A stretch of 64,000 nucleotides of DNA, taken from IMG/VR virus record IMGVR_UViG_3300021197_001654, positions 1 to 64,000 of that record; one strand, 5' to 3'. A program made the position numbers and the translations under genes. Below are positions 4,601 through 64,000 of the stretch, piece by piece. How positions within the stretch are numbered: position 1 is the first letter of the stretch; each line of letters starts with the position of its first letter. This DNA comes from a virus. Under the pieces are notes generated by a model that was given only the letters and a program-made list of their open reading frames with translations, ran no database searches and was not told the DNA's origin.

Positions 4601-7600
4601 CAACGCGTTCCGACCAGACTTAAATTTAATTTGAGGATCGCCGGTAATAAACCGAACCAGCTTTTGAGGTACGCCCTCATGGATAAGCGTCACGGCATCG
4701 CCGATACTTTGTTGCGTCATCCGAACGCCCGCCATGACGGCTTCTCTTACCTTCGGCGGCAGGCTCCTCATGTCAGCCACGGCATCACCGCCGATAAACG
4801 CAAATGCGGCACCCTTCTTCACCGGGCCTGACGTGACGACAAACTGCTCTATCATTTCCGTCGTCGAAAGCTCATTTACCGCGTCGGCCTGACTCGTAGT
4901 CGCAATTTTGCGTGTCGCCGGAGAGTCAACCGTGCTCTTTCTTGCAGCAAAAGACGCGTAACCACGACTAATTTCTTCCAGTGAGTACGATGACTTTGCT
5001 CCCGGAGACAAAAGTCCGCCGAGAGATACCGGTCCCGGCAGATCGATAGTTACATCTGCTTGACGGTCCTTTAGATATTTCTTGTGCGCCGCAAGCAGCT
5101 TTGACTTTAGCTCCTTTACCGATATCGGATGACCTAGCCTATCAGATTCTTGTGCAATTCTAAGGAGATACTCGTCGCTGACTTTTGCGGGTAGATCGTC
5201 CAGCAATGCCCGTCGAATAGACTTGAAGATATTTGGCGCCCCGGACTCTTCCGGCGGCATCCCGACTAAGATCCGGTCAAACACCGACTCAATCTGAGGT
5301 TGAGGGCTAAACTGCGCTCCGTCAACGCGAGCATTCTTGGCTGCTGCAAAACTCTCTGCAATCCGGTTTCGAACGCGCTCGAACGCTGAGGTAATCTCGG
5401 CGGTCGGCGGCGGAGCACCCTCGGCGTACGCGGTAAACGCTTTTGCAAATACATCCTCAGCGCGCGCAATCTCCGCCGGGTCGTCCGAAACAAACAACGC
5501 ACCGCGATGACCTACCTTGATTCCTTGAGTCGAGAGCCACTCCGTGACTTTACCCATCTGCTCGGCGTCCAGTTCTTTACGTGCAACCTTACTGATCTCA
5601 AGAATAAACGCTTCTACGGACGGCGCTTCTTCCATAGCTCGTACGACTTTCTGCGTATCGGCAGCAAACTCGGCGACCTCGGGTCCTGCCGCCGGTCGAA
5701 GTGCCGCTGCGCCAGGAGGAACATCAACCGAGGGGGCAAACTTCCGTATGTCTAAACCTGAATCAGCGAAATCCGCTAAGGTATTTTTATTCATCACGAA
5801 CCGCAGTAGAGGTTCGCCTGTAGCGGCATTCATAGTCTTGAGTTCAGAAAACGGAACGCCTGCCGCGATTAACCGCCGATACATCTTCGTCGCTTCCGCA
5901 TTGGGATTGACGTCACTCAAGAAACCCAGGCCCCGCGTCTTCGCAACCTTAAGTGCCTCTAGATACACCGAAGTCCCAATACCCTGACCACGAAGACTGG
6001 CAGGCAACTCGATCGACTTCACGGACAAGTTCTCGCCGTCAGCCTTAAACACCATCCCCGAAATAAAATCAGCGTCAGGGTCAACCGCTGCGTCGCGCAG
6101 TTCTTTTGTCGTCAGAAGCTCTAAGCCTTCCTTAAGAGGCTCGACCTTCGGATCAATCCCAATAGATCTCGCCGCATCATCCACCGCCGTCACCGCTGCC
6201 GCTGCCGCATCGTCTGATTGATCAACAATCGCCTCACGCTTCATACGGCCTATGATGTCGCTAAACTCTCGACGCTCAAAAATCTCTTCGACAGACTCGT
6301 TAGTAGTTCGTGCAATTGCTTTTAAGCGTTGGTCAAGGTTCCGCGCGACATGCATCGCCGAGTCACCCCGCATCGCAGGAAACGTTTCCTCTAGCTGGTT
6401 CCGGAAATTAAGGGCGGTAGACGAAATTTTACGCGTTCCGATCTCTTCGTATTTATTCGCGACGGATTGAATAATCGGACGAACCTTTATCTTCTCCTGC
6501 TCCGCCAACGCTTTTCGAGTTAGCGCGTGAGCGACACCTCTCGACTCGGCGATAGCGGCAATCGAATTAGTTACCTTGACAAGCTCGGCCGTTAAGTCAG
6601 CCTTTGACCGCTGCACTTCAGACTTAGCCGCAATCTTCGCCGCCTGGTCGTGCGCTTTGCCGATTTCCCGCGTCAGATCCCGAATATTAAATTGCTTCGA
6701 CCCCTTTTTTCCTGGTGGAAGTTCGGACAAATAGGTCACAAGACGACCCTCAAAAGCCTCTGGACTGCGGGCAATTAAGTCCGCGCCTTCTCGACTACGA
6801 ACAAACGACAACAAATCCATCACGGAACGACGCACCTGCTCCGACTGACCCGCCTTTTTCGCCTGCGTGAACCCCTGACGCACCAACTGGTTATTAAGTT
6901 TCGTCATAAGCGGAGCCAGCACTTCGCGCTGAATCTCAACGGCGTAGCCACCACTTGTCTGGTCCTTACCGATTCGCGTCGCCAAATTCTGAAGCCTCTC
7001 TAACTTACGAGAAAGACTAAGGAATTCGGGGAACGGTACAATCTGAGCCTCGGCTTCGCCGCGAGAAAGAACTCGCTCTGTTGCGGGGTGAACAAAGTCA
7101 CGCTTCAAGCCGGTGTCCGAGAAGCCCAGAACAGACGCAACTTCATCCGCGCCCTTACCCGTCAACAACGGAACATCGCGGGCTATCTCCATCGCAACGT
7201 TATGATCCGTACGATCAACTTCTCTCATCAGAGGCTTTAATTTTTTCCGTATCGTTTTTTCTGCGTCTTCCGCGACCTTAACGGTTTCCCGTGCTTGCGC
7301 TAAAAGCTTGTTACCTTCATCGATGTTTCCGGCGCTAAAAGAATCTCTCGCCCGAACAACCAACTTTTGAGTCTCAATCATTTCGCCGGCCGCATCACCC
7401 ATGCCGTCAAGTGCATCGGGAATAAACCTTTTGTTCAGCAGCGGCTGAAGCTTCTTGACTCCTGCGCCTACCGTGGACACAGCTTTAGCCAGTCCGACTG
7501 TAGGGTCCGGCGTTAGGACGTCAACTAAAAAGCCTAGCGAGCCGTAAGCAAATGCCTTTACGCCACCGTCTTCCGCCCCCTCACGAGAGAGCATCAGCTT

Positions 7601-9424
7601 TGTGAAGTCGTCCGCGTCCTTAATTCCCTGGACGGAGCCCTTCATCAAAGCCTCTCGAACAGACTCGCCCTCAGGTCCGTCTAAAAGTCGGCGCAGGCCA
7701 CCGGCAGTAAAGCTCAGGTGAAGGTTGAGCTTATTAAACACGCTATCGAGGGTATCCTCTGCCGTGAATACCGGTCGATTACTCTTGTCCAAACCGACGA
7801 TTCTTACTCGGTTTTTTCCTGCCGCGTCAGCCAATTGAGTGAGGTAGGGGTCTCCCTCGCCGACACGGTTCTCGAACATCGTGTTGTCGGGGTCCATAAA
7901 CTCGTACGACAACAGCGCCGGAACACCCAACTTATTTGTCGTAAGGTACAAGGCTACATGACGTTTGTTGGCTCTTACAAGCTCGTCCCGTAAAGCCTGC
8001 TCTCTAGACCCCTCCACCATAGCCGCCGCGTCAAAAGCGCCCACAGTGATCCCCATCTTTCGGGCGACAATCTCGCGGTCATACTGATAGCCTGCTTCGA
8101 AGAGCTTCTGGAAAGCACGATTCTCAAACGAACTTTTAATGTCCGTTTTCTCCAGCCCGGCTAAAATCGCAGAGATCATTCGCGCCCGATCAGGTTGATC
8201 CGATACTTCGGGGTCCGTCAGCATTCTGACTTCTTGCTCATAATGATTGTACGCCGCAGACCCCGGCTTTGCGATTTCGTTCTGGACGTCGCCGCCGATA
8301 GCTTCCTTGTCCAACAAGAATCGGTACGTCTCTTTTTTGTCGGCCTTGTTTATCCGGTCCAAAGCCGCTTGGCGCTTGCGCATATCAATCTCAGCAAGCG
8401 ACTCACCTTGAGGTGACGCCTTAGCCGCTTCACCTAAAAGTCGACTGGCTTGCTTTAGGTATGCTTGCCGCCGTTTCTGTTCCGTTGCATCTTGAATCGA
8501 TGGCTTCTCGAAATTAGTCATGAACTGATTTGTAAGCTCATTTGCGTCCGCGTCAGGGTTGCGGAACCCCGCCAACTCGTCACGGCTATGCACCGCGTCA
8601 AGAATCTTGGCCATCTGGAAGCGCGGATCCTGCAACTGCTCAACCGTGTACCCCACGCCTTCGCCAGCACCGCGATTAAACTGCCACACGCCGTGTGAGT
8701 CTTCCTTACCCGGAGACTTTATAAACGGATCCAACCGACTCTCAGAAAACCCATTAGCTAGAATAGCCGCCATCTGGTTCTGGTTAAGGCCCGCGCTAGA
8801 CCCCATATCATAGACAACCTGAGCAACTGCTTGTTGCCGCTTAGACGAATCTTTGATCGACTTAAAGTCAATTGGCTTAGACGCTTTAGCTGTGCGCCGC
8901 TCTTCGTCCGTAAAGGCATATTGCTTCTCGCCCGAAATCAGGCGCTGATTCGCGATGTCCTTGATTTCTTGCTTCCGCTTAAGAACATTAAGCTTCGAGC
9001 GAATAGATTTCATCGCTTCTTTACGCTGCTCAAGGGGCTTCAACGAAACCATGCCGCCAGCTTCAAGCTCTGAGAGGACATCCTTGACGTCCAGTCCCTT
9101 ACGTCCGACATCATCCAGCAGCGTGCCTACCTCAAGGCCCTGGCTACGCGCCGCACGCGCAAACTGGTCTTCGGTCAGGCCCAATCTGCGGCTGTGCTTA
9201 TCAACAATTACGGGCAAAGAAAAAAGCTCGGCCTCAATACCTTTGATACTACCCGGCCCAAACGCAAGTTCTCTCTGTCGGATTATCGTATTGGCCAGTT
9301 CCTCCACCTTCAGATCGAGGCTGTCAAACTCGATCTCTTCTTGAGCCGCCGAAGAATCCGAATCTACAATCGGCGTAAGGTCGGCCTCCGTCTTAGTACG
9401 ACTCGATTTTTTAGGCTCGGCCAC
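1646..9424 (-). CDS. Giant internal virion/ejection polyvalent protein (2592 aa) with phage-tail-lysozyme-like, GNAT-like and degenerate metallopeptidase-like segments
   Basis: AAILANGFSESRLDP...SHGVWQFN...FMTNFEKP (lysozyme2-like); IELPASLRGQGIGTSVY...NAEATKMYRRL (GNAT acetyl-CoA loop); C-terminal ALYDYAG...FFPFWAFQKN typical of large ejection proteins; sits after tail genes. Confidence 0.8.
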   Translation of the reverse strand: MAEPKKSSRTKTEADLTPIVDSDSSAAQEEIEFDSLDLKVEELANTIIRQRELAFGPGSIKGIEAELFSLPVIVDKHSRRLGLTEDQFARAARSQGLEVGTLLDDVGRKGLDVKDVLSELEAGGMVSLKPLEQRKEAMKSIRSKLNVLKRKQEIKDIANQRLISGEKQYAFTDEERRTAKASKPIDFKSIKDSSKRQQAVAQVVYDMGSSAGLNQNQMAAILANGFSESRLDPFIKSPGKEDSHGVWQFNRGAGEGVGYTVEQLQDPRFQMAKILDAVHSRDELAGFRNPDADANELTNQFMTNFEKPSIQDATEQKRRQAYLKQASRLLGEAAKASPQGESLAEIDMRKRQAALDRINKADKKETYRFLLDKEAIGGDVQNEIAKPGSAAYNHYEQEVRMLTDPEVSDQPDRARMISAILAGLEKTDIKSSFENRAFQKLFEAGYQYDREIVARKMGITVGAFDAAAMVEGSREQALRDELVRANKRHVALYLTTNKLGVPALLSYEFMDPDNTMFENRVGEGDPYLTQLADAAGKNRVRIVGLDKSNRPVFTAEDTLDSVFNKLNLHLSFTAGGLRRLLDGPEGESVREALMKGSVQGIKDADDFTKLMLSREGAEDGGVKAFAYGSLGFLVDVLTPDPTVGLAKAVSTVGAGVKKLQPLLNKRFIPDALDGMGDAAGEMIETQKLVVRARDSFSAGNIDEGNKLLAQARETVKVAEDAEKTIRKKLKPLMREVDRTDHNVAMEIARDVPLLTGKGADEVASVLGFSDTGLKRDFVHPATERVLSRGEAEAQIVPFPEFLSLSRKLERLQNLATRIGKDQTSGGYAVEIQREVLAPLMTKLNNQLVRQGFTQAKKAGQSEQVRRSVMDLLSFVRSREGADLIARSPEAFEGRLVTYLSELPPGKKGSKQFNIRDLTREIGKAHDQAAKIAAKSEVQRSKADLTAELVKVTNSIAAIAESRGVAHALTRKALAEQEKIKVRPIIQSVANKYEEIGTRKISSTALNFRNQLEETFPAMRGDSAMHVARNLDQRLKAIARTTNESVEEIFERREFSDIIGRMKREAIVDQSDDAAAAAVTAVDDAARSIGIDPKVEPLKEGLELLTTKELRDAAVDPDADFISGMVFKADGENLSVKSIELPASLRGQGIGTSVYLEALKVAKTRGLGFLSDVNPNAEATKMYRRLIAAGVPFSELKTMNAATGEPLLRFVMNKNTLADFADSGLDIRKFAPSVDVPPGAAALRPAAGPEVAEFAADTQKVVRAMEEAPSVEAFILEISKVARKELDAEQMGKVTEWLSTQGIKVGHRGALFVSDDPAEIARAEDVFAKAFTAYAEGAPPPTAEITSAFERVRNRIAESFAAAKNARVDGAQFSPQPQIESVFDRILVGMPPEESGAPNIFKSIRRALLDDLPAKVSDEYLLRIAQESDRLGHPISVKELKSKLLAAHKKYLKDRQADVTIDLPGPVSLGGLLSPGAKSSYSLEEISRGYASFAARKSTVDSPATRKIATTSQADAVNELSTTEMIEQFVVTSGPVKKGAAFAFIGGDAVADMRSLPPKVREAVMAGVRMTQQSIGDAVTLIHEGVPQKLVRFITGDPQIKFKSGRNALSAGHDMMGSASQSLNKYFANVATSEQTELSKAYSVLKGLLDDQRFMSKGWEKTLENGQQTAINAVDSIVFAKGGSDLLQKIFAAGGYANGRSLDPKAFQLLETVTYSLGLTTRKGKLFDGADNSVSQFSKLYDDIHRLYGIDADVGPVANRVTALIAGYGQAAKARLEWVNLGIATDARTANNFKKWIQGEGIDDAADMAKVEQAFKVHGYNPQFLEAAELEGLNFYVPAAARRKLSMALEQATDPTQKQLTGDLFEALGQGIKEVAGGDQLAMAWTYRYLKTRMVRGHFLLKSRYFWMNTMDHFNQMGQIVGFRPALISTTRILPQTFAANPVGQGIIAVAQKFGPDDAGEAARRWLQSKGDAAADWSAKILRSSKWRGDLNDLLEARDGFMMVDGIPLAYKDLRRIGVEEGLSASFDTAALGTKIRLAGEMFLSDEMAKGANTSKLGFLTTGANPYRQMTKVAEDIAEGWSERERYGAMLTLVEMGVDPRKAARLTIDALYDYAGSMSKMDRHWLINIFFPFWAFQKNANRQLVDVVFSPRGAYRLGVLNRSYNKGSQFVSEMLFEDIVDPLGVDVQALSDEQRDAYDALKKDLVDDFGVDSISQLDDKLKRQILMAMSGRDSMFQHGKWYKLNASGAEIRRLYKKSKDGKFNYGGVLEGGALEKPSKTSLPPYYSRRDVIMSPHAANEQNRLFHTLKGRQEPDRSFTAFMFPEQSYKAAYNHFALTWSALFAIGSNLMSVAAPDYLTDAYSPDDENELMSVSKPLMDLFQPDRALLAADLFAMAKMKDNGPPYRVAGSLAKMMAKSGYEFLPVDPKEDPFRRRLEYSQAMQEVEDGKIRLEEEDPYLFGAQLKPTKNYYMSGGLGTLLLKHSPLDELNGYLKKLEMAPSEEQAEIRGQIQRWVRTFGVMDITEVYPDKTAAMGVYEQQEETGGQDFTAVKRAIGADYVDVEKKEPAPLKGDLERLERLKKRDPGSRKIDLE

Positions 9425-51929: not shown

Positions 51930-54071
51930 TCACGCCTCCGATTCTATCGCCATATCTGCTGCGTGCCTGTCGATGCAGTAACATCGTGTCGGCTGACCAT
52001 CGACGCGCACAACGCGGCTTCGAGCCTTCTGTATTCCACCGCTACGCTTCAGCCACTCCCGGTCTTTCCAGCGCGTGATAATCTCATCGGGCTCGTGTCC
52101 AAGCTCACGCATTAGATTATTAAAAGCAGTAGTCGTTACTGCAATCTGATCCCAATCGTTCTTCTGGTCCCATGAGCCGACCCATCCCTGCGAAGGCGAT
52201 TTAGTATTGCCCTCGCGGTCACGCTCTGCACGACCCCAAAACCTTTTCTGGTTCGACGCACACCAAGTCAAGAAATCTTGCAGTGCTGACAACGGTCGGT
52301 CAGCGTCTACGCCAGCCTGCTCCTGCGACTCAAGTAAGCAGGTGAATGGGTCAACCGTAGGGTGAGGCACACCCAAACTATGTACGATGCTAGCAGATAC
52401 TTCGAGTACAGCCAGATGCCCCGCATGTCTCCGAGCCACCGCAGACTTGGCCAGGTCGGAGTATTTCTGACGCGCCACCTGAAAGACTCCTCGGATGTCG
52501 TCATGTCTTTCCCGGTTGGCCACCAGGTACTGAACTACGCGTCGGCCGAGATGTCCGTAAGTCTTCGCCAGCAGCGCCTGTGAGTCTTCGCTCGCCGCTG
52601 AACCCACTACAATGTCGTCTCCCAGCGGCTTACCCTTGAGCGACAGAACACGCGCACGAGTACCAGCATCCTGCGAGAATGATGTAGCCGCACCTTCTCC
52701 ACTACTTACAAGAATCGAACGCCAGGACTCAGTATGGCGCGTACCTTCGACGGAGCCGCGACCCCTACCTTGACCCTGACAGAAGTCATAGATGACGTCA
52801 CGGACGATCCTCGTGTGCCTAGCGCGCTTGGTTTCGTCTAGGATCAAAGGCAGGTTCTTAAGGAATCCACTTGTACGCTCAATCCAAACCTTAGTGGCGT
52901 CCCAAGAATACATGGCTGTCGGGTATGACTCTGCGGGACGACCCCAGACGGCAGCCGCAAAGCGAAGAGCCGTAGTCTTACCACCGCTAGTCTCCCCGCT
53001 GAAGTCTAAAACAAAGCCCGGAACACGGAGCACTTCGAGTAACGGAGCCGCAGCGCTCGCGTATGTCGCGACGAACATGTAAGGAAAGTCCTCGACTAAA
53101 CGCATAGCGTCAAGCCATTCGTTCCAAGTTCCCTTAGCAACCCATCCACCCGACAAAGTCTCAAGACCTGACGGAGGCGTAAGCGCAAAGTCTGTGTCGG
53201 AATCATCCCCAGACGAATAGTACATGTCTGGTAGGAGAAACCCACCATCGGGCTGCCATCCCATCGAGGAAGCTGACTGCACTACAGGAAACCTGTGCGC
53301 ATTCTCAGCGTCGAACTCAGATAAATACGACACCATGTGCAATGTATTGTTCGTACTGACCGGCGCGTCTAAGTTTGAAAGCGTAATGATCTTTGATGTG
53401 TCGACGATAGTTCGTCTGTTGACGACTCGTGACCGCCACCCACTGGCTCCACGCCAGACAAGCAGTCGCTTAGCGTCGCCACTGACCACATCTATTGTTC
53501 GACCCGCGATAAAGATCGGCGCAAGAGCGATACGTGTCCGCGATATAGTTCCGTCGGGCTGAGCCGCAAGCCTGTATACGCCGTTAAAGTCAATCTCAAA
53601 CCCGCGAGGAGTCCTAAGACTTCCAAGCACTTGCCGGGTAACAATTGATGGCGGCGGCGAACCTTCACCCAACATAGTCTCGAGGCTAGGTAATTCGCCA
53701 AGCTGCTCTTCAATCTCGGCCAAGATAGCGTCGGAACGACGACGTCGCATATCGTTTGCGAGGTTCTGTATCGTCCTACGCAACTGACGTGCGCGCTGAA
53801 CCTGTCGCGGAATCATCTCGATAAGCGCAAGGTTTGTGTTTAGTCGGACCTCGTCTTGCAACCAAGCTTCCGCCAAGTCGCTAATGGTCTCGGGGTCATG
53901 CATGGAATCCCACGCAGCCCTATGTTCTGGGCGTCCCCCCTCTCGTAGCCGACCAACGAGTCGGTTAATTACTTCTACTGCGCGATCAACGACAGAGACT
54001 TCATCCGCGTCTCTGCTTTGGCCACCGGGGCTCTCCATCCCCACCGTGCCATCTGCTTCCATCTGAACCAC
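51930..54071 (-). CDS. DUF927 / Cch-like replicative helicase
   Basis: MGWQ, GETSGGKTT Walker A, LPLILDE Walker B, GRGR, WRSILVSSGE; C-terminal winged-helix-like region. Confidence 0.85.
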   Translation of the reverse strand: MVQMEADGTVGMESPGGQSRDADEVSVVDRAVEVINRLVGRLREGGRPEHRAAWDSMHDPETISDLAEAWLQDEVRLNTNLALIEMIPRQVQRARQLRRTIQNLANDMRRRRSDAILAEIEEQLGELPSLETMLGEGSPPPSIVTRQVLGSLRTPRGFEIDFNGVYRLAAQPDGTISRTRIALAPIFIAGRTIDVVSGDAKRLLVWRGASGWRSRVVNRRTIVDTSKIITLSNLDAPVSTNNTLHMVSYLSEFDAENAHRFPVVQSASSMGWQPDGGFLLPDMYYSSGDDSDTDFALTPPSGLETLSGGWVAKGTWNEWLDAMRLVEDFPYMFVATYASAAAPLLEVLRVPGFVLDFSGETSGGKTTALRFAAAVWGRPAESYPTAMYSWDATKVWIERTSGFLKNLPLILDETKRARHTRIVRDVIYDFCQGQGRGRGSVEGTRHTESWRSILVSSGEGAATSFSQDAGTRARVLSLKGKPLGDDIVVGSAASEDSQALLAKTYGHLGRRVVQYLVANRERHDDIRGVFQVARQKYSDLAKSAVARRHAGHLAVLEVSASIVHSLGVPHPTVDPFTCLLESQEQAGVDADRPLSALQDFLTWCASNQKRFWGRAERDREGNTKSPSQGWVGSWDQKNDWDQIAVTTTAFNNLMRELGHEPDEIITRWKDREWLKRSGGIQKARSRVVRVDGQPTRCYCIDRHAADMAIESEA

Positions 54072-54614: not shown

Positions 54615-56621
54615 CTACGGAGCCGGCGGAAGATTAATCGGGACAACGTTGTCTGCCTTCACGACCTTAAAGCTACCATCAGGTAGTATCTCGGTGAGTG
54701 AGGGGTCAAGGTTGTTCTCGATTAGATGCGCCGCTGTCTCTTTAGTCATCGTAAGAATATCGACCATGAGAAACCCGCGCTCCTCCAACTTCTTAGCTGA
54801 CCGGCTGATAACACTGAGCCCACCATCGTTACGTACCTTCTTGCGGGCAGGCTTCTTTTCCTGTGGCTCGGGTACTGCAACGTCCTCGACGACCTTCTCG
54901 CCTTCGACCCAGGTCTTGCTGACCTCGTCCATGTCAATGATAGTCCACCCCTTTGGCGGACGACCCATCGGACGAACGGTGCTCGCGATAACAACTTGAC
55001 CCTCAAAGCTGAGAAACCCACGCATGACGGCAGACAGAGTGCGTGTGTCCCACGCCCGGTCATACGGAATCAGAATCGCAGGGTCAGACTTACTCATCTT
55101 AGCGGTGACGGCCATACTTACAGCAACGATTACTGTGGCCCACTCGGCACCAGACAAGGCGCAGTGTAGCCTACCGTTACGCTCGAACCCCATGCGGAAT
55201 ACCTCTCGGTCGCCATCCATGAGTTCAATCTTAAAGGTCCACTGCTCCGGCAAAAACTTCTGTACTTGCGAGGTAAACTTGAGAGCTTGGACTGAGAGTA
55301 GGTGACCCACAGCTTTCTCACACGCAATCCTCAAGTCCTTGTAAGTACTCTGGTCTTCCCGAAAGTTCTGGATTCTTGATTGGGCATTAGTCAAATCGGA
55401 CCAGCGGTCACGAACGACTTCCATCTTACCTAAGGCGTCCATAGCAACACCCAGTCTCGCTTGTGCGTCGTCGACGGGAATCGCTCGACCATCTTTGGCC
55501 CTCACCTCGGTCGCCTCAACAGAAGCGATCTCTACCTCAACAGCACTCAAGTTCTTCTGAGCACTATCAATACGCCCCTGCATGTCGTTGATGCGGCCAC
55601 GGAGTTCGAATGATTGCTGCTCCCACGTAGAGTTGATGTCCTCGTAGTAGGTCTGGCAACTCTTGAGGTGGTCAAGTCCCACAGCGCTGCTGCATACAGG
55701 GCATTGCTCAAGGCTGTGCTCAACAGCAACGTTCACGATTGCGATTGCCTGGTCAACATTAGCGCCCTTCTGAGGCAGATTTAATTCAAGTTCGCGCTTA
55801 GCCGAAGTCGAAGTCACCTTCATGTCTTCCCACGCGTGTCGCTGCTCAGCTAATCGACGTAGCTTGTCTGACTTCTCGGCTTCCGTCATGCCTGAGTTCG
55901 CCGCTCGAATTGACGCGTCTAGTATCTCTCTCGCTTCGGCGACAGCAAATCGAACCTTCTCGATGTCTTCGTCCGACGGCTGGGCCTCAACGGAGTCACC
56001 GATTGTCCCGATAACAATTTCTGCGCCCTTGATCTCTTTTGCTATCTCCCGGCCACGAGTGTTCGCGTAGTTGAGAATCTCAATGAGAGTTTCAGTCTCG
56101 CTCAAGTTCCGGCCTCGATGCTGTGCAATGTCTTTATACTTGCTGTGCAACTGCGTAGGTAAGCAGGCTAAAACGTCCTCGCGATGGACGTCTTCACTTG
56201 ACCACTGCAAGAATGCTTTTCTTGCTGTCGACGCCGACCCCGAAAGAGCAGCCGCGACTGAACGGTGGACCAAGCTAAGTGCGCCCGGCCCATCATGCTG
56301 AGGCCTCTTGACCTTGCCGTCTTCTCGACGAGCGTTGTAGCTCGCTGTATTGCCATCGCTAAACCGTGCGGTAACTCCAAGCTCGTCTCCTGGTGCAAGG
56401 GTAAGAAGTAAAGCCGCGTCAGATACAATGCTTCGGCCGATAATATCATCGGCAGAGCCCGCAATCGCAAGCTCGATAGCTTGCACGACGGTGCTTTTGT
56501 GGCTTGTGTTTGACCCCACAAGCAAAGTTTTCGGTCCAATGTCGATGCTCCAGGCATCTCCATTAGGTCGAGGTGACTTCAAATTACTATAGACATTCTC
56601 GACGTAAGGTCGCGTGGACAT
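54615..56621 (-). CDS. Rad50/SbcC-like ATPase with zinc hook, divergent ATPase motifs
   Basis: LLVGSNTSHKST, coiled coils around CPVC, LSGAE signature, ILIPYDRAWD; AGGAGG RBS. Confidence 0.75.
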   Translation of the reverse strand: MSTRPYVENVYSNLKSPRPNGDAWSIDIGPKTLLVGSNTSHKSTVVQAIELAIAGSADDIIGRSIVSDAALLLTLAPGDELGVTARFSDGNTASYNARREDGKVKRPQHDGPGALSLVHRSVAAALSGSASTARKAFLQWSSEDVHREDVLACLPTQLHSKYKDIAQHRGRNLSETETLIEILNYANTRGREIAKEIKGAEIVIGTIGDSVEAQPSDEDIEKVRFAVAEAREILDASIRAANSGMTEAEKSDKLRRLAEQRHAWEDMKVTSTSAKRELELNLPQKGANVDQAIAIVNVAVEHSLEQCPVCSSAVGLDHLKSCQTYYEDINSTWEQQSFELRGRINDMQGRIDSAQKNLSAVEVEIASVEATEVRAKDGRAIPVDDAQARLGVAMDALGKMEVVRDRWSDLTNAQSRIQNFREDQSTYKDLRIACEKAVGHLLSVQALKFTSQVQKFLPEQWTFKIELMDGDREVFRMGFERNGRLHCALSGAEWATVIVAVSMAVTAKMSKSDPAILIPYDRAWDTRTLSAVMRGFLSFEGQVVIASTVRPMGRPPKGWTIIDMDEVSKTWVEGEKVVEDVAVPEPQEKKPARKKVRNDGGLSVISRSAKKLEERGFLMVDILTMTKETAAHLIENNLDPSLTEILPDGSFKVVKADNVVPINLPPAP

Positions 56622-56654: not shown

Positions 56655-56681
56655 ACTATAGCAGCCTTACCGGTGTGTCAA
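56655..56681 (-). promoter_or_regulatory. Sigma70-like promoter candidate for the Rad50-like gene
   Basis: TTGACA, 15-nt spacer, TATAGT with TG extension (spacer short). Confidence 0.45.
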
Positions 56682-57109
56682 GCGCTAAACTCTAACCGTG
56701 CCCATGAAGCCCAGTTATCTTCAGGCAGCACATGTATCGCCTGTACTTGTTGGAATCTATCTTCGTCAGGGCACCACGAATAAACATGCTTACCCTCAGA
56801 CAAGAAGCCATCTACGATCTGCGCAGTAGCTTTCCCTACAATTATGTCCCCGCACTCTGAGTACGCAGGCACGATAACGCCATGGAACATAGGTGCTCCA
56901 CGATAGTCTTTCCCATGCGGTACGTCTCGGCACCAAGCCTTCCATCCGCCGAGGGCTGCCGACCTGGTGTCGTAGTCATCTCTTCCCGAGACTACTTTAG
57001 TTTCCCAGCCGTCTTGCACTAGAGATCTACCGATCTTGGCGCACCACTGCTCTATCTCCCCTGGATCATCCGCTTTCGAATGCGCCAGGAACCACTTTGA
57101 TTGATTCAT
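56678..57109 (-). CDS. Hypothetical protein (143 aa)
   Basis: AGGAGAGG RBS directly after pol. Confidence 0.75.
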   Translation of the reverse strand: MNQSKWFLAHSKADDPGEIEQWCAKIGRSLVQDGWETKVVSGRDDYDTRSAALGGWKAWCRDVPHGKDYRGAPMFHGVIVPAYSECGDIIVGKATAQIVDGFLSEGKHVYSWCPDEDRFQQVQAIHVLPEDNWASWARLEFSA

Positions 57110-57117
57110 ATCCTCTC

Positions 57118-59859
57118 CTATATGTCCTTTAGGCTGCGTCCGACTTCAGCCTCTGCAGTCATCGTAACTTCCCACCCAGGAATCGTCACGGTCATGCATT
57201 CTTCAACTCGTTTGCGTGCAGCTTCCAACTCCGGCGGCAAAGGCTCACCCTCCACCGGCTTCCAGTCTGGTGGTAGATGGTCGGGTAACGGAACCTCTAC
57301 GGCAATTGAGTCATGGCACTGATGAATCATGCCCGTCCCCTTACCCGCGAAGTCAAACGCAAACTCATCAATGATAGCCTGCTCTGCAAGCCTCATGATC
57401 GATGACTCGGCCGCGAGTATCGGAAAGTTTACGACCTCGTTCTTCTTTCCATCTGACAGCGGGCCTGAGCGACGTCCGAAGACCGGCTCCTCCATAAAGC
57501 CTTGCTGGCTGTACTTACTGAGCATCTGCGCCCAGGCGTCCTGCCACTGAGGCTCGGCTTTCAACCACTTATTGTGGAAGTGCCTCACCTCACGAGGCTC
57601 GAATTTAAGGTAAGGCATTCGCCCGTCGTCAGTCTCGGTGCTTGTCAGTACCTGCCAGACTGTCATCGGGTCGGCCCAGTAAATCGACGCATACCGGAAC
57701 GTCTTCATGACGTCGCGCATGGCCTTAGCTTCGCCGCCCGTTGGCTTTCGGTCAAGGCTGAACCCATCTGGGCCCCAGCCACTGGCGTTCTTAAAATCAT
57801 TACCAAAAACATCATAGGCTAATAGATTGTGGGGATCCTTACCTGTGTCGAAGCACTCAAGTAGTCGCGGTATCTGCCAATAGCACGCCGTGATTCTGAG
57901 GTGCGCCTGGTCGAGGTCCGCGCCCACAAGTATGCGGCCCGGAGGAGCCGTAAAGATTGACTTAAGTCGGCCCTGACCCTTTCTGTTCCCAATGTTCTGG
58001 AGGTTTGGCCCTGAACTGGATAGCCTTCCTACGCTGGTAACGTGAGCGTTCCATGTAGACCTCACACGACCATCGTCATGCACTAGTCCCTTCTTCGGGT
58101 CTTGGCTCCTACGCCTAAGCGGAACGAGCACGGTCCCGAGAATCTTATTTTTCTCTCTACGATAAAGTCGAAGCTCCTTTAAAAATGACTCTTGATTACT
58201 GCTCAATTGACCCGATGCGAGGTGCCCACGGATTACTGCATCACCTGTACCTGGAGCGCCTGTCTCCGTATAAAACTCATTCGTGCTCATCGAAGCCGGA
58301 ATCCCGAGATTCCAAGACTCGTAAAGAAGCTTCCGAATCTGATCGACACTCCCAGGATTAAAGTTGCTGTCGACATACTTCTGCAACTCCTTGTAGCGCT
58401 TCTTGACCGAGATCTCGTACTCACACTCAAGCGAGCTTCGAAGCTCCTGGTCAATCCACACGCCGGATTTGTGCATTCCCACGCACATGTCTTGCGTTGC
58501 GTGATCAATTTCGTTTAGGTCCCAAGCCCTGCCGCTCGCCCAGAAACCAGGTTTAATTCCGTCATTGATTGGACGGAAGGCACCCATCTCAGTTGCCGCG
58601 TCGATCAGGGGTACCGTGATCCGTGCGTTTACAACCGTGTCGATAATGTTGTACCGAAGAAGTTCGGTGTCATCTTGGCTGCCCGTAGATATCTTCGTAC
58701 CTTTCTCGGTAGTCTCCCAGCGCTCGACGTCAGTCAGTACTGAGCCGATAGTCTTCAGCCCTTTCGGAAGGTCAGGAGCCCGGAACCGAGCATGAAAGAG
58801 AGTGTCGACCAACGGCGCAGGCGTAACGCCAAGCTGCGTCTCAACGACCATGCGGTCATAGTACCCAGCGTTGTGCCCCACCCACACGCGACCATCTGTG
58901 AACGCGGCGCAAATAATCTCGCGTATTCGGCGTTCTTGCTCTCGCGGGTAGATTCGAGTGACCCCATCCGTTGAGAGAATGCCGACGCCGACAGCCCGGC
59001 AAACTTGCGCTGGCGGTTCCCGAGCAGCCTTGCCTTCGTCGTCAAGGTCAGGAATAGCGATAGCAATAGTGCGTAGGTTGCACTCTAAGGGCTCGATGCC
59101 GTCAGTCTCAACGTCATACACCCAGAACGGTGCTGGTTGCGCTAGGAACTCTTCGAGTTGCTCAGGGGTGGGGTTGAGTAGGGAGTCAGGTTCAAGCCAG
59201 CGCAGCGTATCGTTGAACCAACGTGTCGCTTTAGAAATGTCGGCCTCAATAACGGGTCGCCAGTTCGGCGCTCGCGTAACGTAATGAGGCGAAAACGTGG
59301 CCAGCATCTTCTTATTAGTGGGCTCTAAACTCCAGAGCCAGTCGTCGTCAATGTACATCGGGCCACCACGTATGCCGTGAATGCTACCCGACTGACCGGA
59401 AAGTGTTCGCACCGCAGTCTTACCGAACGCGATGAACTTGTCGTACTTACTGAGCACGTTGAGCAATCGAGGCCTGCAGCAGTCGGCCGGGTGAGGTAGC
59501 GGGTCTTCGCCCTTACTGACACGCTTCTTGTTTAGGCGATCTAATGACTTCTCCATCCGACCCCACGCGCCACCTACCTTTCCTGGAGGCTTACACGCGA
59601 TGACGTTGTCGAGGTCTACGTGCGACCGGTTCATTCCGGCAGTCGCCAGGAACCGCGACCACTCACCAGCGGCGGTCCCCATAACGGGTCGACCGTGATT
59701 GATATCCTCTGCTCTAGGAGCTTCCCCGAGCGCTAAAATCTTAGCTCCAGGATGAAACTCGCCCATGACAGGACGCCACTCATCTTTCTGTAGCGCCCCG
59801 TTCGGGCCAAGAGGGCACTCATCGCAACGAGCACCGCATTGTTTTGGATTAGTATTCAT
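57118..59859 (-). CDS. polA: Family A DNA polymerase with N-terminal family-4 UDG-like domain and 3'-5' exonuclease
   Basis: CDECPL...GEAP...DNVIAC (UDG-like); YDVETDG, GHNAGYYD, YNIID (exo); GRLSSSGPNLQN, ADLDQAHLR, RDVMKTFRYASIY, CHDS (pol). Confidence 0.92.
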   Translation of the reverse strand: MNTNPKQCGARCDECPLGPNGALQKDEWRPVMGEFHPGAKILALGEAPRAEDINHGRPVMGTAAGEWSRFLATAGMNRSHVDLDNVIACKPPGKVGGAWGRMEKSLDRLNKKRVSKGEDPLPHPADCCRPRLLNVLSKYDKFIAFGKTAVRTLSGQSGSIHGIRGGPMYIDDDWLWSLEPTNKKMLATFSPHYVTRAPNWRPVIEADISKATRWFNDTLRWLEPDSLLNPTPEQLEEFLAQPAPFWVYDVETDGIEPLECNLRTIAIAIPDLDDEGKAAREPPAQVCRAVGVGILSTDGVTRIYPREQERRIREIICAAFTDGRVWVGHNAGYYDRMVVETQLGVTPAPLVDTLFHARFRAPDLPKGLKTIGSVLTDVERWETTEKGTKISTGSQDDTELLRYNIIDTVVNARITVPLIDAATEMGAFRPINDGIKPGFWASGRAWDLNEIDHATQDMCVGMHKSGVWIDQELRSSLECEYEISVKKRYKELQKYVDSNFNPGSVDQIRKLLYESWNLGIPASMSTNEFYTETGAPGTGDAVIRGHLASGQLSSNQESFLKELRLYRREKNKILGTVLVPLRRRSQDPKKGLVHDDGRVRSTWNAHVTSVGRLSSSGPNLQNIGNRKGQGRLKSIFTAPPGRILVGADLDQAHLRITACYWQIPRLLECFDTGKDPHNLLAYDVFGNDFKNASGWGPDGFSLDRKPTGGEAKAMRDVMKTFRYASIYWADPMTVWQVLTSTETDDGRMPYLKFEPREVRHFHNKWLKAEPQWQDAWAQMLSKYSQQGFMEEPVFGRRSGPLSDGKKNEVVNFPILAAESSIMRLAEQAIIDEFAFDFAGKGTGMIHQCHDSIAVEVPLPDHLPPDWKPVEGEPLPPELEAARKRVEECMTVTIPGWEVTMTAEAEVGRSLKDI

Positions 59860-59948
59860 AAGAAATAAGGCATCTATCTCGACCACCCACATGCCTACCT
59901 GCTGGGCCCTTGGGGGTACAGGTAACCCCCTGGTCTATCTACTCAGCT

Positions 59949-60545
59949 TCAGCTAACGATACCCTGCGCGGCACTTGCGGGAGGTGGTAGCGAGACTCCA
60001 GCGGAGGGCACAGGAGCGCCGTTAGACACAGCAGGCTTAGCCTCTGGTGATGGTGCAGGCTTCGCAGGTGTCGCAGGTGTCGCTACCTTCTGGAGAGCCT
60101 CGAACTGCTTCCGGTTCAGCCACTTACCGATCTCATTGTACGATCCCTGTACGCCCTTCTGGCCGGGGATGAACTCGATATGAGCTTTGCGTCCACCATT
60201 CTGGGCCGTCAGGAACCAGTTAGTGTTGATTTCCGCAGCGCCTTCGATGTCCGACGCTGAGTACCCGAGAGACTCAAGTATTGAGCGGAGTACCGCGAGT
60301 CGACCACGCAACTGCTTATCTGTGAGGTCCGTGAACAGCGCGCCTGTGTCATCGAATGGAAGACTCAGAAACGAGAACATCTTAAACCCGTTCTCAAATT
60401 GAATGTGAACTCGACGAGTCGTTGCCTTGTCTGTTGAGGCCCTTTCGATATTTACGACGCTGACCTCGTAGTAGCCCGCCTCCGGCGCCGAAGCCCCGAG
60501 AGCACTGATTCCTTGAAATGCGTTTCCTGATACTTTGATAGCCAT
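59949..60545 (-). CDS. Putative phage SSB / OB-fold protein (DUF669-like)
   Basis: PEAGYYEVSVVNIE N-terminus, YNEI, Pro/Ala tail; next to Sak4-like gene. Confidence 0.55.
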   Translation of the reverse strand: MAIKVSGNAFQGISALGASAPEAGYYEVSVVNIERASTDKATTRRVHIQFENGFKMFSFLSLPFDDTGALFTDLTDKQLRGRLAVLRSILESLGYSASDIEGAAEINTNWFLTAQNGGRKAHIEFIPGQKGVQGSYNEIGKWLNRKQFEALQKVATPATPAKPAPSPEAKPAVSNGAPVPSAGVSLPPPASAAQGIVS

Positions 60546-60562
60546 GATGGCTCCTTTTGTTG

Positions 60563-61543
60563 TTAGTTAATTGGTGGTGGAGGTGGAAGATTCGGAGACG
60601 AATTACTCTGAGCTTCCTCGTTAGAAAAATCAAACATTGATTGAGTTGCCTGCTGACCCAATACGCCACGCGCAATGCCATCCTGGCAAGCCCAGCGAAG
60701 ATGCAACCGATTGTCAGTCCGACCCGACACGGCTGACTTAATCGCTTCGGATACATCAGCCCCGCTAATGATATCATCTGCGACCGACTGAGCAACGTCA
60801 TCTTGCCATTCGAGGCCTTCGATGCGGCTCAACTGGTAGTTGCTCTTGCTCGCGCGTAAGATCTCGCGAAGATTACCCGGAGTCTTCGCCGAACAAGTTC
60901 CCGTGCGGTCACCGGTTACCCACTCAGGATTCGTCGGGTCGCAATAGTAGATGCTTGGGAACCACGGGTCCGGGTACGTAGGGTCCACCATCGCGCGAAC
61001 GTTGATGTCGCACCAAGATGGTAGCGTCTCAATTTGATTCCTCGAAGGCACATCGGGGCCGCCAGGGCAGAATCTCCCCTCCGCGTTTGTGCCGGGCATC
61101 CGCTCGTGGAAATTCATGAGTAAGTGAACCCCCAGGTACCGAGACGTATGGGCCACCTCCAGTAAGTGCTGGTTTAGCTGCTGGTAGGGGTAGAACCTAT
61201 CTTTCTTTCCGCTGCGGCCGGCGGGCGCATTCTCCGTCCACTCGAACATTGAGCGCTGGCACAAGTGACTAATGTCATCCACGACGAGGGCGTCATGCGA
61301 TGCTTTGTCGCTAATCTCTGCAAAGCTCTTCAGCATACTGACGAGGTCAGTAAGATTCTTCGGTGAATCGGGGTGTACTGACGGACTAAACCCCAACTCA
61401 TTCTGAGCCACAAGCGTAATCGCTGACGGCACCCCAAGGAACAATGCCCTGGGAAACGCAGCTAGCGCGTCACTCGTTTTCTTTTGTTTGGGTTTACCGT
61501 AGACTGTAATCATTACAGTCGGCAGCGGATCTGACTTACTCAT
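60563..61543 (-). CDS. AAA_24 / Sak4-like recombination ATPase
   Basis: ITVYGKPKQKKTS, LVVDDIS, MNFHE, GDRTG. Confidence 0.75.
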   Translation of the reverse strand: MSKSDPLPTVMITVYGKPKQKKTSDALAAFPRALFLGVPSAITLVAQNELGFSPSVHPDSPKNLTDLVSMLKSFAEISDKASHDALVVDDISHLCQRSMFEWTENAPAGRSGKKDRFYPYQQLNQHLLEVAHTSRYLGVHLLMNFHERMPGTNAEGRFCPGGPDVPSRNQIETLPSWCDINVRAMVDPTYPDPWFPSIYYCDPTNPEWVTGDRTGTCSAKTPGNLREILRASKSNYQLSRIEGLEWQDDVAQSVADDIISGADVSEAIKSAVSGRTDNRLHLRWACQDGIARGVLGQQATQSMFDFSNEEAQSNSSPNLPPPPPIN

Positions 61544-61552
61544 TGCTCTCTC

Positions 61553-62542
61553 CTAAATAGTCTTTGCGGCTTCGCCGTAGAAACAAAACTTAATACCGGG
61601 GCACGCGCCGTATCTTCCGATGCACGAGGTCTCATGCTGAACCTTAGGCCAGTCCCAGAAACTGGGTGAATCTACCTCAAGCCGAGCCAGCCTGTGCTCA
61701 TCGCGCCAAATCATCTCGGCAAAATGATTATCTCGGTGAGGTGTCGCAGGAACCATCGGACGCGCGACGCGCCAGGGAGCCTGAGTCTGAATCAAGTTAA
61801 GCCCCAGGCCGCCGAAGTCGCTGCCGTACATCTGCTTGCCCATGATTCGGAACGCCGCGAACCCACCATCGATTGCGTAGCCGTCGACATTCTTGTTCGC
61901 CTGCACGCGAGCCTGGTGCTTGTGGTCCCAGATAAATGTGCGTCCTCCGCGCTCTTTAGTAACCATGTCGAGACGTCTGGTCAGCGTCAGGGCAGCCCCT
62001 GAATCTGGGTGGCCGGGGCAATTTAGCGGTGACGGAATAATCACGCCTCCGTCCCAAGCCTTAACCTTTGCGGCTCGACGATTGAAACCTGTATCCTCAG
62101 CGTGTACAACCCATAGACCCCACTGGTTGTCTTTAGTTCCGAGAACTGCAGTCACGGGGTACTCGACTTTAATCACGTTACCCGGAGGTTCGGGGTGTTT
62201 CGACATGTACCGCCTAAAGGTCTCAAGCATACGTTCAAGATGCTCATGCCCACCATTGGTATCGCACCACATCTCTACGGCTTCTTCAGGGTCGAGAAAC
62301 ACGGCGGGATCATCGTGCCATGTCTCATCGACCCAGACACCTTCGTCGGAGGGAGCCCCCCAGATTGCGTGCTGATGCGCCTGGAGGATGTGGCCCATGC
62401 TTCCACGAGTCAAAGCGTGAGCCGGAATCATCGTAAGGTCAAGCCGTTGCCCATAGGCGAACAACTGCGGACATCGGGAGAAGGTTCCGATACGTGACCA
62501 CCCACGGTCAGACCTTCCTGCGTCGATAAGAATCTTTCTCAT
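61553..62542 (-). CDS. PD-(D/E)XK Cas4-like exonuclease
   Basis: WSRIGTFSRCP, GSMGH, TRRLDMV, IWDHKH, C-terminal C...CP...C. Confidence 0.75.
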   Translation of the reverse strand: MRKILIDAGRSDRGWSRIGTFSRCPQLFAYGQRLDLTMIPAHALTRGSMGHILQAHQHAIWGAPSDEGVWVDETWHDDPAVFLDPEEAVEMWCDTNGGHEHLERMLETFRRYMSKHPEPPGNVIKVEYPVTAVLGTKDNQWGLWVVHAEDTGFNRRAAKVKAWDGGVIIPSPLNCPGHPDSGAALTLTRRLDMVTKERGGRTFIWDHKHQARVQANKNVDGYAIDGGFAAFRIMGKQMYGSDFGGLGLNLIQTQAPWRVARPMVPATPHRDNHFAEMIWRDEHRLARLEVDSPSFWDWPKVQHETSCIGRYGACPGIKFCFYGEAAKTI

Positions 62543-62712
62543 CCCGCAGCCTTCCGGCGTTGGTTTTCCATGCGGCTTTTTGCGCTTAGTGCAAGCTTCC
62601 ACAGGCGTCGCTTCTGGGCCGCAATCAACACCTCTTGAGGATCAACTCCCTCTTTCTCCAGGAGCCTCCAGGGCACTCGCCTACGGTGAAGTCGTTCATC
62701 ATCTAAATCCAT
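62539..62712 (-). CDS. Small basic protein (57 aa)
   Basis: MDLDDERLHRRRVPWRLL...; coupled at both ends; not in ORF track. Confidence 0.5.
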   Translation of the reverse strand: MDLDDERLHRRRVPWRLLEKEGVDPQEVLIAAQKRRLWKLALSAKSRMENQRRKAAG

Positions 62713-64000
62713 CACGCTACCTCCAACTTGCTGATAATGCTGCTTACAAGAGCGTCCTCGTCTTCCATACCAAGAAGCTTGTCGCCCAAGCCATCAAGCT
62801 CATCGGCCTTAAGGAAGGACTCGATAGGGCCAAACTTGTCTACGAGAATCTGAACGACACGCTCGTCGTACGTTCCTTGAGCAACAACAACTTTAAGAAG
62901 CGTCGGGCTGCCTCCTAGACGGTCAAACCTGCCCTTCCATTGAAGGAAATCACCAGGCTTCCAAGGAAGCATCGCAAAGATAGCGAGGTTCGCCGTCTGC
63001 ATACCATCAACTCCGGTGCCCACACTCTGCCCCGTAGCCACCAGGCAGCACGCCTCATCGCTGTTCCTGAAGGCATCAATCATCTGGTCTCGCTCAGTCT
63101 CAGACACACCGCCATGGGCCATCCACACGGGCACACCCTTCTGGGCCTCGTCCCCCTTGCTTAATTGTTGACGCAATTGATGGGCCCACAACTCAGTCTC
63201 ACGCCTGCGCGCAGTAAAGATTACGACTTTACCGCCACCCTTTAGGCCCTCAATAGCCTCTTCGATGACGTACCGACGTTTACGCCCGCAGGCCTCGGCA
63301 AGTCTCGCCTCGACGACACGCTCTCGGCCCTCTGGCCGGGTCGCCGCCTCACGAGTCATCTGACGTACCGCTTGATTAAACGTTTGCTCGTCGCTAAACC
63401 GATCGGCACGATTAAGTTCAGTGTTACCCAGGTAATCTACCTGAACTCGCGTACTCGGAAGGCTCGAGTGCGACTCACTGTACGGAACTTCGTGTACAAA
63501 GAACGAGCACCTTGCTTTCAGTTCTTTGATGTTGGAATACCCGCTATCGTTCATGCCCCCGTAGGCGCCAGGCCGAGCATCGCAGTAGCGACTAGCAAAA
63601 TTAGAGTAGCTGTGGGAGAACCCGCCAGGAGCCAGCAAATCAAGCTGTGACCACAGCCTTCGAGGGCGTCCATCATCCAAGGGTGTAGCTGTCAGTCCGA
63701 TACGGAGGTCGATGCTCGAAATCCTCGACACTTCCATCATCGCAACTGCGCGAGCGTGGCGATTTACCTGTGAGTTAGGGTTCTTGCTCGCCGATGTCTT
63801 CCGCTTCTCGAAACGCACACTACCATCGACGTTATGAATCGCCGTCCAGCGTTTACTGTTTCCATGCGTGTGAATCTCGTCCAATATGAGTATTTCAGGG
63901 GCGATACCCCGGATAATCCCTATGTTATCGGCGATTGACTCCGCGCCGACCACGACAAACTTGCGTTGACCGGTTTCTGCGCACTCATCTACGTACTGAC
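62712..64000 (-). CDS. SF2/SNF2-like helicase, 5'-truncated
   Basis: LILDEIH, GLTATP, LWSQL, GTGVDG, QWKGRFDR; frame stays open to window edge. Confidence 0.85.
   Translation of the reverse strand, partial: QYVDECAETGQRKFVVVGAESIADNIGIIRGIAPEILILDEIHTHGNSKRWTAIHNVDGSVRFEKRKTSASKNPNSQVNRHARAVAMMEVSRISSIDLRIGLTATPLDDGRPRRLWSQLDLLAPGGFSHSYSNFASRYCDARPGAYGGMNDSGYSNIKELKARCSFFVHEVPYSESHSSLPSTRVQVDYLGNTELNRADRFSDEQTFNQAVRQMTREAATRPEGRERVVEARLAEACGRKRRYVIEEAIEGLKGGGKVVIFTARRRETELWAHQLRQQLSKGDEAQKGVPVWMAHGGVSETERDQMIDAFRNSDEACCLVATGQSVGTGVDGMQTANLAIFAMLPWKPGDFLQWKGRFDRLGGSPTLLKVVVAQGTYDERVVQILVDKFGPIESFLKADELDGLGDKLLGMEDEDALVSSIISKLEVA

Follow-up and report, generated by a model that had tools for sequence, protein, structure and literature searches.

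Textbooks treat two residues of family A DNA polymerases, the steric-gate glutamate and the minor-groove glutamine, as near-invariant. Both are replaced in a polymerase encoded on the minus strand of a 64,000-nucleotide stretch of viral DNA (the window), which comprises the first 64 kb of the 73,693-bp IMG/VR record IMGVR_UViG_3300021197_001654, from an uncultured tailed marine phage. Positions are numbered here as in E. coli PolA (MG1655 polA), using a MAFFT alignment. A reclassification of family A into 19 clusters places the gate position among the highly conserved residues (PMC10201439). In ternary complexes of KlenTaq, N750, Q754 and E615, which are Klenow N845, Q849 and E710, are jointly in water-mediated contact with the incoming base at its minor-groove O2; the 3'-OH is bonded to the E615 backbone, and R573 (R668) is bonded to the oxygen of the ring (PMC7155079). 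In the Bst fragment, a hydrogen bond links Y714 (Y766) to E658 (E710) in closed structures and to Q797 (Q849) in simulations, and these Y714-E658-Q797 contacts make up the pocket's rear surface (PMC12756729).

Several described systems resemble the phage enzyme in architecture or gene context. The N4-like polymerases with a fused uracil-DNA glycosylase (UDG) domain (cluster 17, Czernecki et al. 2023) have an inactive UDG, and the family has Phe at position 762 (PMC10201439). The SPO1-like and SP15-like UDG-PolA enzymes (Missoury et al. 2026) have an active UDG domain, proposed to act ahead of the fork, and belong to phages with T-modified genomes and the corresponding biosynthetic genes; the SP15-like enzymes are 1,200-1,400 amino acids long, with two large inserts and a C-terminal domain (PMC13697223). 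The CcPol-MP PolA/SSB primases of SCCmec and other mobile elements keep E710 and F762, have no exonuclease and depend on an adjacent protein with an oligonucleotide/oligosaccharide-binding (OB) fold (PMC7581432, PMC10061031).

The marine phage polymerase departs from the canonical residues at four positions, Klenow 666, 710, 849 and 852, which change as a unit across its superfamily. We refer to the replaced set as the His state and number the four residues as switch residues 1 to 4. The gene and its features are as follows.

57118-59892, minus strand: UDG-exonuclease-PolA gene, 924 amino acids, stop codon included in the span (open reading frame (ORF) list, Pfam, PHROG, AlphaFold2 (AF2), Foldseek)
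59197-59853, minus strand: family-4 UDG-like N-terminal domain, about residues 14-232 (Pfam; NCBIfam UDG_fam4, 1.8e-13)
58543-59145, minus strand: 3'-5' exonuclease domain, about residues 250-450, with D260, E262, D346, Y414 and D418 (alignment to Klenow)
57121-58527, minus strand: polymerase domain, about residues 456-924 (Pfam, phmmer, Foldseek)
58030-58032, minus strand: V621 (GTA), switch residue 1, equivalent to T666 in the Klenow TGR motif (column overlap between states 0.01)
57895-57918, minus strand: motif A, D659-R666 (DLDQAHLR), with catalytic D659 and, at E710, H664, switch residue 2 (alignment)
57676-57717, minus strand: motif B or O-helix, R726-W739 (RDVMKTFRYASIYW), with R726, K730 and Y738 kept (alignment)
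57406-57429, minus strand: motif 6 and start of helix Q, N822-E829 (NFPILAAE), with N822 kept (column overlap 0.00 at 849 and 852)
57415-57417, minus strand: L826 (CTC), at Q849, switch residue 3 (codon check)
57406-57408, minus strand: E829 (GAG), at A852, switch residue 4 (codon check)
57307-57315, minus strand: motif C, H860-D861-S862 (HDS for HDE) (alignment)

An earlier note on this DNA had begun the gene at 59859; the ORF and its motifs lie in that span, but 59859 is an internal methionine and the longest ORF extends to 59892. Pfam DNA_pol_A (PF00476) matches residues 488-868 (7.7e-30, 104.5 bits against a cut-off of 34.3) and Pfam UDG (PF03167) residues 44-210 (4e-09). PHROG 17, 'DNA polymerase', is matched at 2.8e-69, and phmmer matches the polymerase domain to Taq and Klenow. 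An AF2 model built with 42 relatives has a mean predicted local distance difference test (pLDDT) score of 92.9 and a predicted template-modelling score of 0.91; its best Foldseek match is Klenow 1kfs (E 7.7e-28, template-modelling (TM) score 0.79 on the target), and the large fragments of Pol I known as Klenow, Bst and Taq head the list, with E about 1e-27 and a TM score of about 0.8 on the target. The exonuclease residues aligned to Klenow D355, E357, D424 and D501 are invariant in 121/121 close homologues, and D260, E262, D346, Y414 and D418 are invariant columns in a further alignment of relatives too. Judged by its sequence and predicted fold, the protein is a family A polymerase of a variant type: E710 and Q849 are conserved features of the family and not criteria of membership, so a protein with H664 and L826 stays within it.

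Four coupled positions in the active site

The motifs quoted in the earlier note, DLDQAHLR, that of the O-helix and NFPILAAESS, are all in the translation at the coordinates above, and the two minus-strand codons it had picked out are exact, CAC at 57901-57903 for H664 and CTC at 57415-57417 for L826. A HMMER alignment to Klenow chains places ADLDQAHLRI against ADYSQIELRI. The replacements that the note had aligned by eye hold (E710=H664, N761=R733, F762=Y734, G763=A735, G767=W739 and Q849=L826), as do the catalytic and binding residues it had listed as kept in place (D705=D659, D882=D861, R668=R623, R754=R726, K758=K730 and Y766=Y738); N845=N822 and H881=H860 are kept as well. All exonuclease motifs are retained, with D260, E262, D346 and D418 present. 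The motif C region reads HQCHDS, with Ser in place of E883, a change that the note had overlooked. At position 883 the whole UDG-PolA superfamily has S or A, whichever the state, and N4 gp39 reads HDA, so this branch of family A can do without the second motif-C carboxylate.

Hundreds of close relatives come from marine and other metagenomes, many of them on contigs of 63-74 kb, and an exhaustive HMMER search returned roughly 13,000 hits, with 485 clusters (50% identity) at E<1e-30. In the INPHARED set of cultured phages, by comparison, no sequence, those of N4-like phages included, was more than about 24-27% identical across most of its length. The earlier note had reasoned that close homologues with E and Q intact would point to isolated decay. 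Instead, every one of the 121 homologues with 55% identity or more shares the H, R, Y, L and S of the query, and A735 is kept in 119/121; R623, D659, D861, R726, K730 and Y738 are invariant in the relatives. This 121/121 conservation, together with synonymous codon variation in 84 IMG/VR loci, upholds the note's view that the replacement of Glu by His is no read error, and shows that the pattern is not chance. Tallied by peptide anchoring, His is written CAC 72 times and CAT 12 times, Glu is GAG 57 times and GAA 20 times, and Val uses all four GTN codons. Retention of the four residues through several synonymous codons indicates purifying selection.

Scanning every well-occupied alignment column, we found exactly four that separate the states completely, Klenow 666 (T/S/G in the canonical state, V/P/I in the His state), 710 (E, H), 849 (Q, L/I) and 852 (G/A, E). 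Among approximately 520 relatives, sequences read either [T/S/G]-E-Q-[A/G] or [V/P/M]-H-[L/I]-E, with no intermediates. For the best 150 representatives of 50%-identity clusters, with 33-64% identity, the 710/849 pairs were E/Q in 76, H/L in 64 and H/I in 5, and none was E/L or H/Q. A second database search, which sampled the surroundings of a nested His-state clade (see below) more densely, gave 13 sequences of the form V/M-H-L-E and 109 of the form [T/S/G]-[E/D]-Q-[A/G/C/V], and 131 complete IMG/VR loci divided 77 to 54 between the states in a profile-anchored alignment. Altogether, no intermediate state was found among sets of 121, 151, 122 and 131 sequences.

These columns redraw the list of residues that had been called rewired. 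E710H and Q849L do belong to the switch, whereas N761R, F762Y, G763A and G767W are lineage background, and V621 and E829 had been missed. The pocket is indeed remodelled, and H710 and L849 co-occur as a clade; W767, proposed as a third member of that group, varies, its position (W739) being W, A or G even in close kin. The residues at Y734 and A735 are common to both states, and position 761 is Q or S, never R, in an independent His-state clade nested among E/Q sequences. The note had also held that substitutions common in ordinary phage PolA would count against it, and by that criterion they are common: the His state is carried by about half of this superfamily of hundreds of 50%-identity clusters, though we found it in no cultured phage.

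In the small nested clade all four columns are flipped, but at the remaining columns that tell the main groups apart, such as 723, 737, 798 and 823, its members retain the residue of the canonical lineage. Trees built with the four switch columns removed required two joint changes for the representatives and three for the denser set, the latter leading to the main group of His-state sequences, to a clade with eight members and to the sequence P0317, sister to a canonical clade. On these trees, the switch arose at least twice and probably three times. In approximately unbiased (AU) tests on the denser set, of 39 sequences, a single His-state clade was rejected (p 0.00016), as was a grouping of the nested His-state sequences into one clade (p 0.015), both values being optimistic. 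Recombination was considered as the origin of the nested His state; neither the lineage markers on the flanks nor identities around the sites favour it, but the P0317 segment around 710 is ambiguous on this point.

Genome and replication module

CheckV rates the genome 100% complete. The record begins and ends within minus-strand ORFs (window 2-1168 and genome 72517-73683, respectively); a single gene probably spans the junction, which would make the record a complete genome, circularly permuted or arbitrarily opened. A Pfam inventory of ORFs and six-frame family searches of this genome found the polymerase as its sole DNA polymerase, with no second one. The same searches found no thymidylate synthase or hydroxymethylase, dUTPase or PurZ-like enzyme, and no Toprim, AEP/Prim-Pol or other primase family. 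The genes flanking the polymerase are listed below.

59949-64000, minus strand: upstream replication module, including a 198-amino-acid protein (annotation searches, shared gene order)
62712-64637 of the genome, overrunning the window, minus strand: superfamily 2 (SF2) helicase (replication module)
61553-62602, minus strand: PD-(D/E)XK exonuclease (replication module)
60563-61543, minus strand: Sak4-like annealing protein (replication module)
56678-57109, minus strand: 143-amino-acid protein directly downstream of the polymerase (clustering; AF2 pLDDT 90.4)
54615-56621, minus strand: 668-amino-acid SbcC/Rad50-like ATPase (PHROG 77, weak; protein-language-model atlas neighbours AAA_23/SMC_N, score 0.98)
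51930-54071, minus strand: DUF927 self-loading replicative helicase or initiator with a Cch C-terminal helix-turn-helix (Pfam DUF927 2.7e-38, and HTH_56)

The genes are ordered SF2 helicase, PD-(D/E)XK exonuclease, Sak4-like protein, 198-residue protein, polymerase, 143-residue protein, SbcC/Rad50-like ATPase and DUF927 helicase. From the SF2 helicase to the SbcC-like ATPase this order is identical in His-state and canonical phages, including the sole available nested His-state locus. A member of the 668-residue protein cluster follows the polymerase in 102 of the 140 loci with a called state (64 His-state, 38 canonical), and the 143-residue protein always adjoins the polymerase in both. Since the same genes flank the polymerase in either state, no neighbouring gene accompanies the switch. 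The DUF927 helicase was seen in His-state loci only, and some canonical phages have a DUF5906/VapE-type protein instead.

We considered both downstream proteins as a primase or an SSB-like partner and rejected them. The 143-residue protein has no Pfam, PHROG or NCBIfam match, and its predicted fold is alpha/beta and not an OB fold, with middling matches only, to nucleoside 2'-deoxyribosyltransferase/DNPH1 and TIR folds (Z 6-7.6; Foldseek E at least 0.008). The 668-residue protein, which has no Pfam match, instead resembles SbcC/Rad50-type ATPases. The DUF927 protein matches PDB 8tch (SaPI Rep, 1.9e-29), 5dgk (Cch, 2.5e-15) and NCBIfam Cch1; PHROGs name it 'primase/helicase', and no primase domain was recognised in it, its residues 1-150 having no family assignment. 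SaPI Rep and Cch-type helicases have been mis-named 'primase' and contain no primase domain (PMC10061031). The earlier note's observation that no primase is visible thus extends to the complete genome.

Other features of this genome and of its relatives were noted in passing. A 2592-residue ORF in the structural region (window 1646-9424, minus strand) has a lysozyme-like PHROG family as its sole match, at residues 197-320, and probably encodes an ejected internal virion protein. As to whether the phage is N4-like, BLASTP found no similarity between this protein and the N4 virion RNA polymerase or between the DUF927 protein and N4 gp43. The early and accessory regions (window 28500-51300, genome 64700-73700) contain the Pfam families SSB, Phage_L5_gp82, YAcAr of the SLOG family, DUF7227, Rho_N, two DUF2589 paralogues and an HTH_3 regulator, and no others. 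Many polymerases of the superfamily, including P0102, P0194, P0286, P0367 and P0372, are 1,200-2,034 amino acids long, and the long relatives carry in-gene intein or homing-endonuclease domains (PF14528, PF14890, PF03161, PF13392). A collection of species genomes gave one match only, JBBAQZ010000044.1 (70,027 bp), whose polymerase is 58% identical to the query; it is the size of a phage genome and is binned in a Myxococcaceae metagenome-assembled genome, and probably reflects the binning of a phage contig rather than a host.

Readings of the altered pocket

T666 lies two residues before R668, and 852 one helical turn past 849; in the query, L826 and E829 are three residues apart on one predicted helix (817-843, AF2). 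Combined with the published contacts, these positions place the four switch sites in, or next to, a single network. E710, Q849 and Y766 of ordinary family A enzymes line the rear of the pocket that receives the new base pair, where T666 is close by and the residue at 852 is small. In the phage enzyme, the gate position holds H664 and the carboxylate appears to have been relocated one helical turn along helix Q, to E829, such that a Glu/Gln pair becomes a pair of His and relocated Glu. The hydrophobic L826 and V621 would fill the vacated Gln and Thr sites; Y738 and N822 are kept. With E829 to orient it and a hydrogen bond to the conserved Y738, H664 would still block the 2'-OH and still read the minor groove, and the enzyme would remain a DNA-dependent polymerase selective for deoxynucleoside triphosphates (dNTPs). 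The two wirings could then be alternative stable solutions with unfit intermediates between them. We consider it probable, with some reserve, that the gene encodes an active replicative polymerase with such an alternative four-residue hydrogen-bond network in its pocket. As the earlier note proposed, the enzyme is predicted to be active, given its kept residues, its confidently modelled Klenow-like fold and its place as the sole polymerase found in a genome rated complete.

Several considerations weigh against this account. Activity is, for every member, a prediction from sequence, and the H664-E829-Y738 contact is inferred. The tight coupling of the four residues equally fits a switch that changes selectivity, and repeated switching could reflect selection by a factor that varies among hosts, not neutrality. 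As to the number of origins, an earlier and sparser AU test, on 50 representatives, was indecisive about a single His-state clade (p 0.078), and the groups submitted to AU testing were named after the trees had been seen, which is what makes the smaller p values optimistic.

One way in which selectivity might change is that the His-state network alters acceptance of the base or minor groove, for the sake of a non-canonical phage nucleotide or of resistance to a host-made analogue, with lineages switching as the pressure changes. The switch residues are the ones through which the enzyme senses an incoming nucleotide's sugar and minor groove (PMC7155079, PMC12756729), recurrence of the switch at least two to three times in related phages suggests selection over drift, and the SPO1-like and SP15-like groups of UDG-fused PolA come from phages with modified thymidine (PMC13697223). 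A large share of the genome is without assigned function, and the conserved 143-residue neighbour faintly resembles a nucleoside 2'-deoxyribosyltransferase or DNPH1 fold. That neighbour, however, is present in both states, the families of thymidylate synthase or hydroxymethylase, dUTPase and adenylosuccinate synthetase (PurZ-like) are unmatched in the complete genome, and the Pfam inventory of its ORFs is without a nucleotide-modification enzyme. Furthermore, the base modifications known from phages are in the major groove, where the switch residues make no contact (PMC13697223), and, as a weaker point, genomes of this clade assemble routinely, at 65-74 kb and from many metagenomes, unlike hypermodified DNA. 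We therefore regard this use of the switch as unlikely. That a His gate held by E829 gives a different specificity for sugar or minor groove, with lineages switching under host pressure, we judge distinctly unlikely; such a specificity may take the form of recognition of 2' or 3' substituents, a ribonucleotide chain start, or immunity to host-made chain terminators.

A His gate might also relax or reverse sugar selection, permitting ribonucleotide use or self-priming and so offsetting the missing primase. The searches of the complete genome returned no primase family, its 'primase/helicase' belongs to the DUF927 helicases and lacks a primase domain, and the family A polymerases of SCCmec, which lie beside DUF927 or COG3378 helicases, do prime with a partner protein (PMC7581432, PMC10061031). 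Nevertheless, we hold this to be highly improbable, as His is bulkier than Glu and would not open the gate. Changes known to open it go to small residues, as in E710A of Klenow and the Gly at the equivalent position of T7 RNA polymerase. Y738 and Y734 are present in the query; its proofreading domain is intact and its adjacent 143-residue protein is predicted to be alpha/beta, so that it differs from the known PolA primases, with their E710 and F762, missing exonuclease and required OB-fold neighbour. The same replication module serves canonical relatives, and a host primase, transcripts or recombination-dependent initiation (through the Sak4-like protein, the exonuclease and the SbcC-like ATPase) can explain the missing gene. 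Absence of a recognisable primase thus does not show that the polymerase primes. With no recognised modification genes found, the same gene order in canonical relatives and a bulky His that would not open the gate, the modified-nucleotide, ribonucleotide and priming roles put forward in the earlier note are unsupported, and altered nucleotide selectivity or priming is a less likely reading than a rewired dNTP-selective enzyme. Decay to an inactive polymerase under relaxed constraint, which the loss of three residues usually treated as near-invariant (E710, Q849 and E883) might bring to mind, is scarcely credible: the replacements are invariant over hundreds of diverged sequences and kept via synonymous codons, all catalytic residues are retained, and the gene, with its high-confidence model, encodes the only polymerase found in a complete genome.

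The four-residue set of the His state is a natural, strongly conserved and widespread alternative to the near-invariant gate and sensor residues. Nothing relevant to E710H, Q849L or their equivalents appeared in the literature searched, a search that most subscription journals fell outside; as far as can be told, the four-residue variant is previously undescribed, although UDG-fused family A polymerases are already known. It offers a clean natural case of active-site epistasis, in which four residues act as a unit with repeated origin. It is also a possible new scaffold for polymerase engineering, for which the gate and minor-groove sensors are the usual targets when modified sugars are sought. 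The position-762 marker used in surveys of virioplankton PolA misses this larger split in the active site. If a different specificity proved true, an abundant branch of marine phages without an encoded primase would replicate with a selectivity unlike that of every characterised family A enzyme.

Comparison with described polymerases

Across the superfamily, the Fe-S cysteines of the UDG domain (C23, C26, C100 and C139) are conserved. The query has GEAPR as UDG motif A and, in common with its near kin, SPH in place of HP in motif B, the motif-B His being lost solely in these near kin. More distant relatives have canonical motifs (GEAPG, GRPFVG and HP[AS]FVL) together with either polymerase state. 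Since the motifs are canonical in both states and degenerate in the query's kin, integrity of the UDG is unrelated to the polymerase switch.

The SPO1-like and SP15-like enzymes have the UDG-exonuclease-polymerase architecture of the query, but the query's UDG motifs are degenerate and no biosynthetic genes for T modification were found in its genome; at 924 amino acids it also aligns to Klenow without the large inserts of the SP15-like enzymes. DpoZ is likewise distant: the query scores 36 bits with phage_DpoZ_1 against a cut-off of 500 (NCBIfam), and PF00709 (PurZ) is unmatched in the genome. With the CcPol-MP primases it shares a family A polymerase near a DUF927/Cch-type helicase in an element without a classical primase; it differs in keeping an intact exonuclease and in having a small neighbour that is not a predicted OB fold.

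The N4-like enzymes resemble the query in UDG-PolA architecture, with a UDG domain that is inactive in the group and has degenerate motifs (GEAPR, SPH) in the query, in a motif C without Glu (HDA in N4 gp39), and in replication genes for an SF2 helicase, an exonuclease and a Sak4-like protein. N4 gp39, in contrast, keeps the gate Glu at 710 where the query has His, the family has Phe at 762 where the query has Y734, and cultured members appear only among weak tblastn matches below 30% identity to the query. Compared with bacterial Pol I, the query has a UDG-like domain in place of the 5' nuclease domain. With E. coli Klenow, Bst BF and KlenTaq it shares the exonuclease and polymerase fold, the catalytic Asp pair, the exonuclease carboxylates, and R668, R754, K758, Y766, N845 and H881. 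It differs from these enzymes, at about 19% identity, in the replacement of E883 by Ser and F762 by Tyr, and in the change of T666/E710/Q849/A852 to V/H/L/E.

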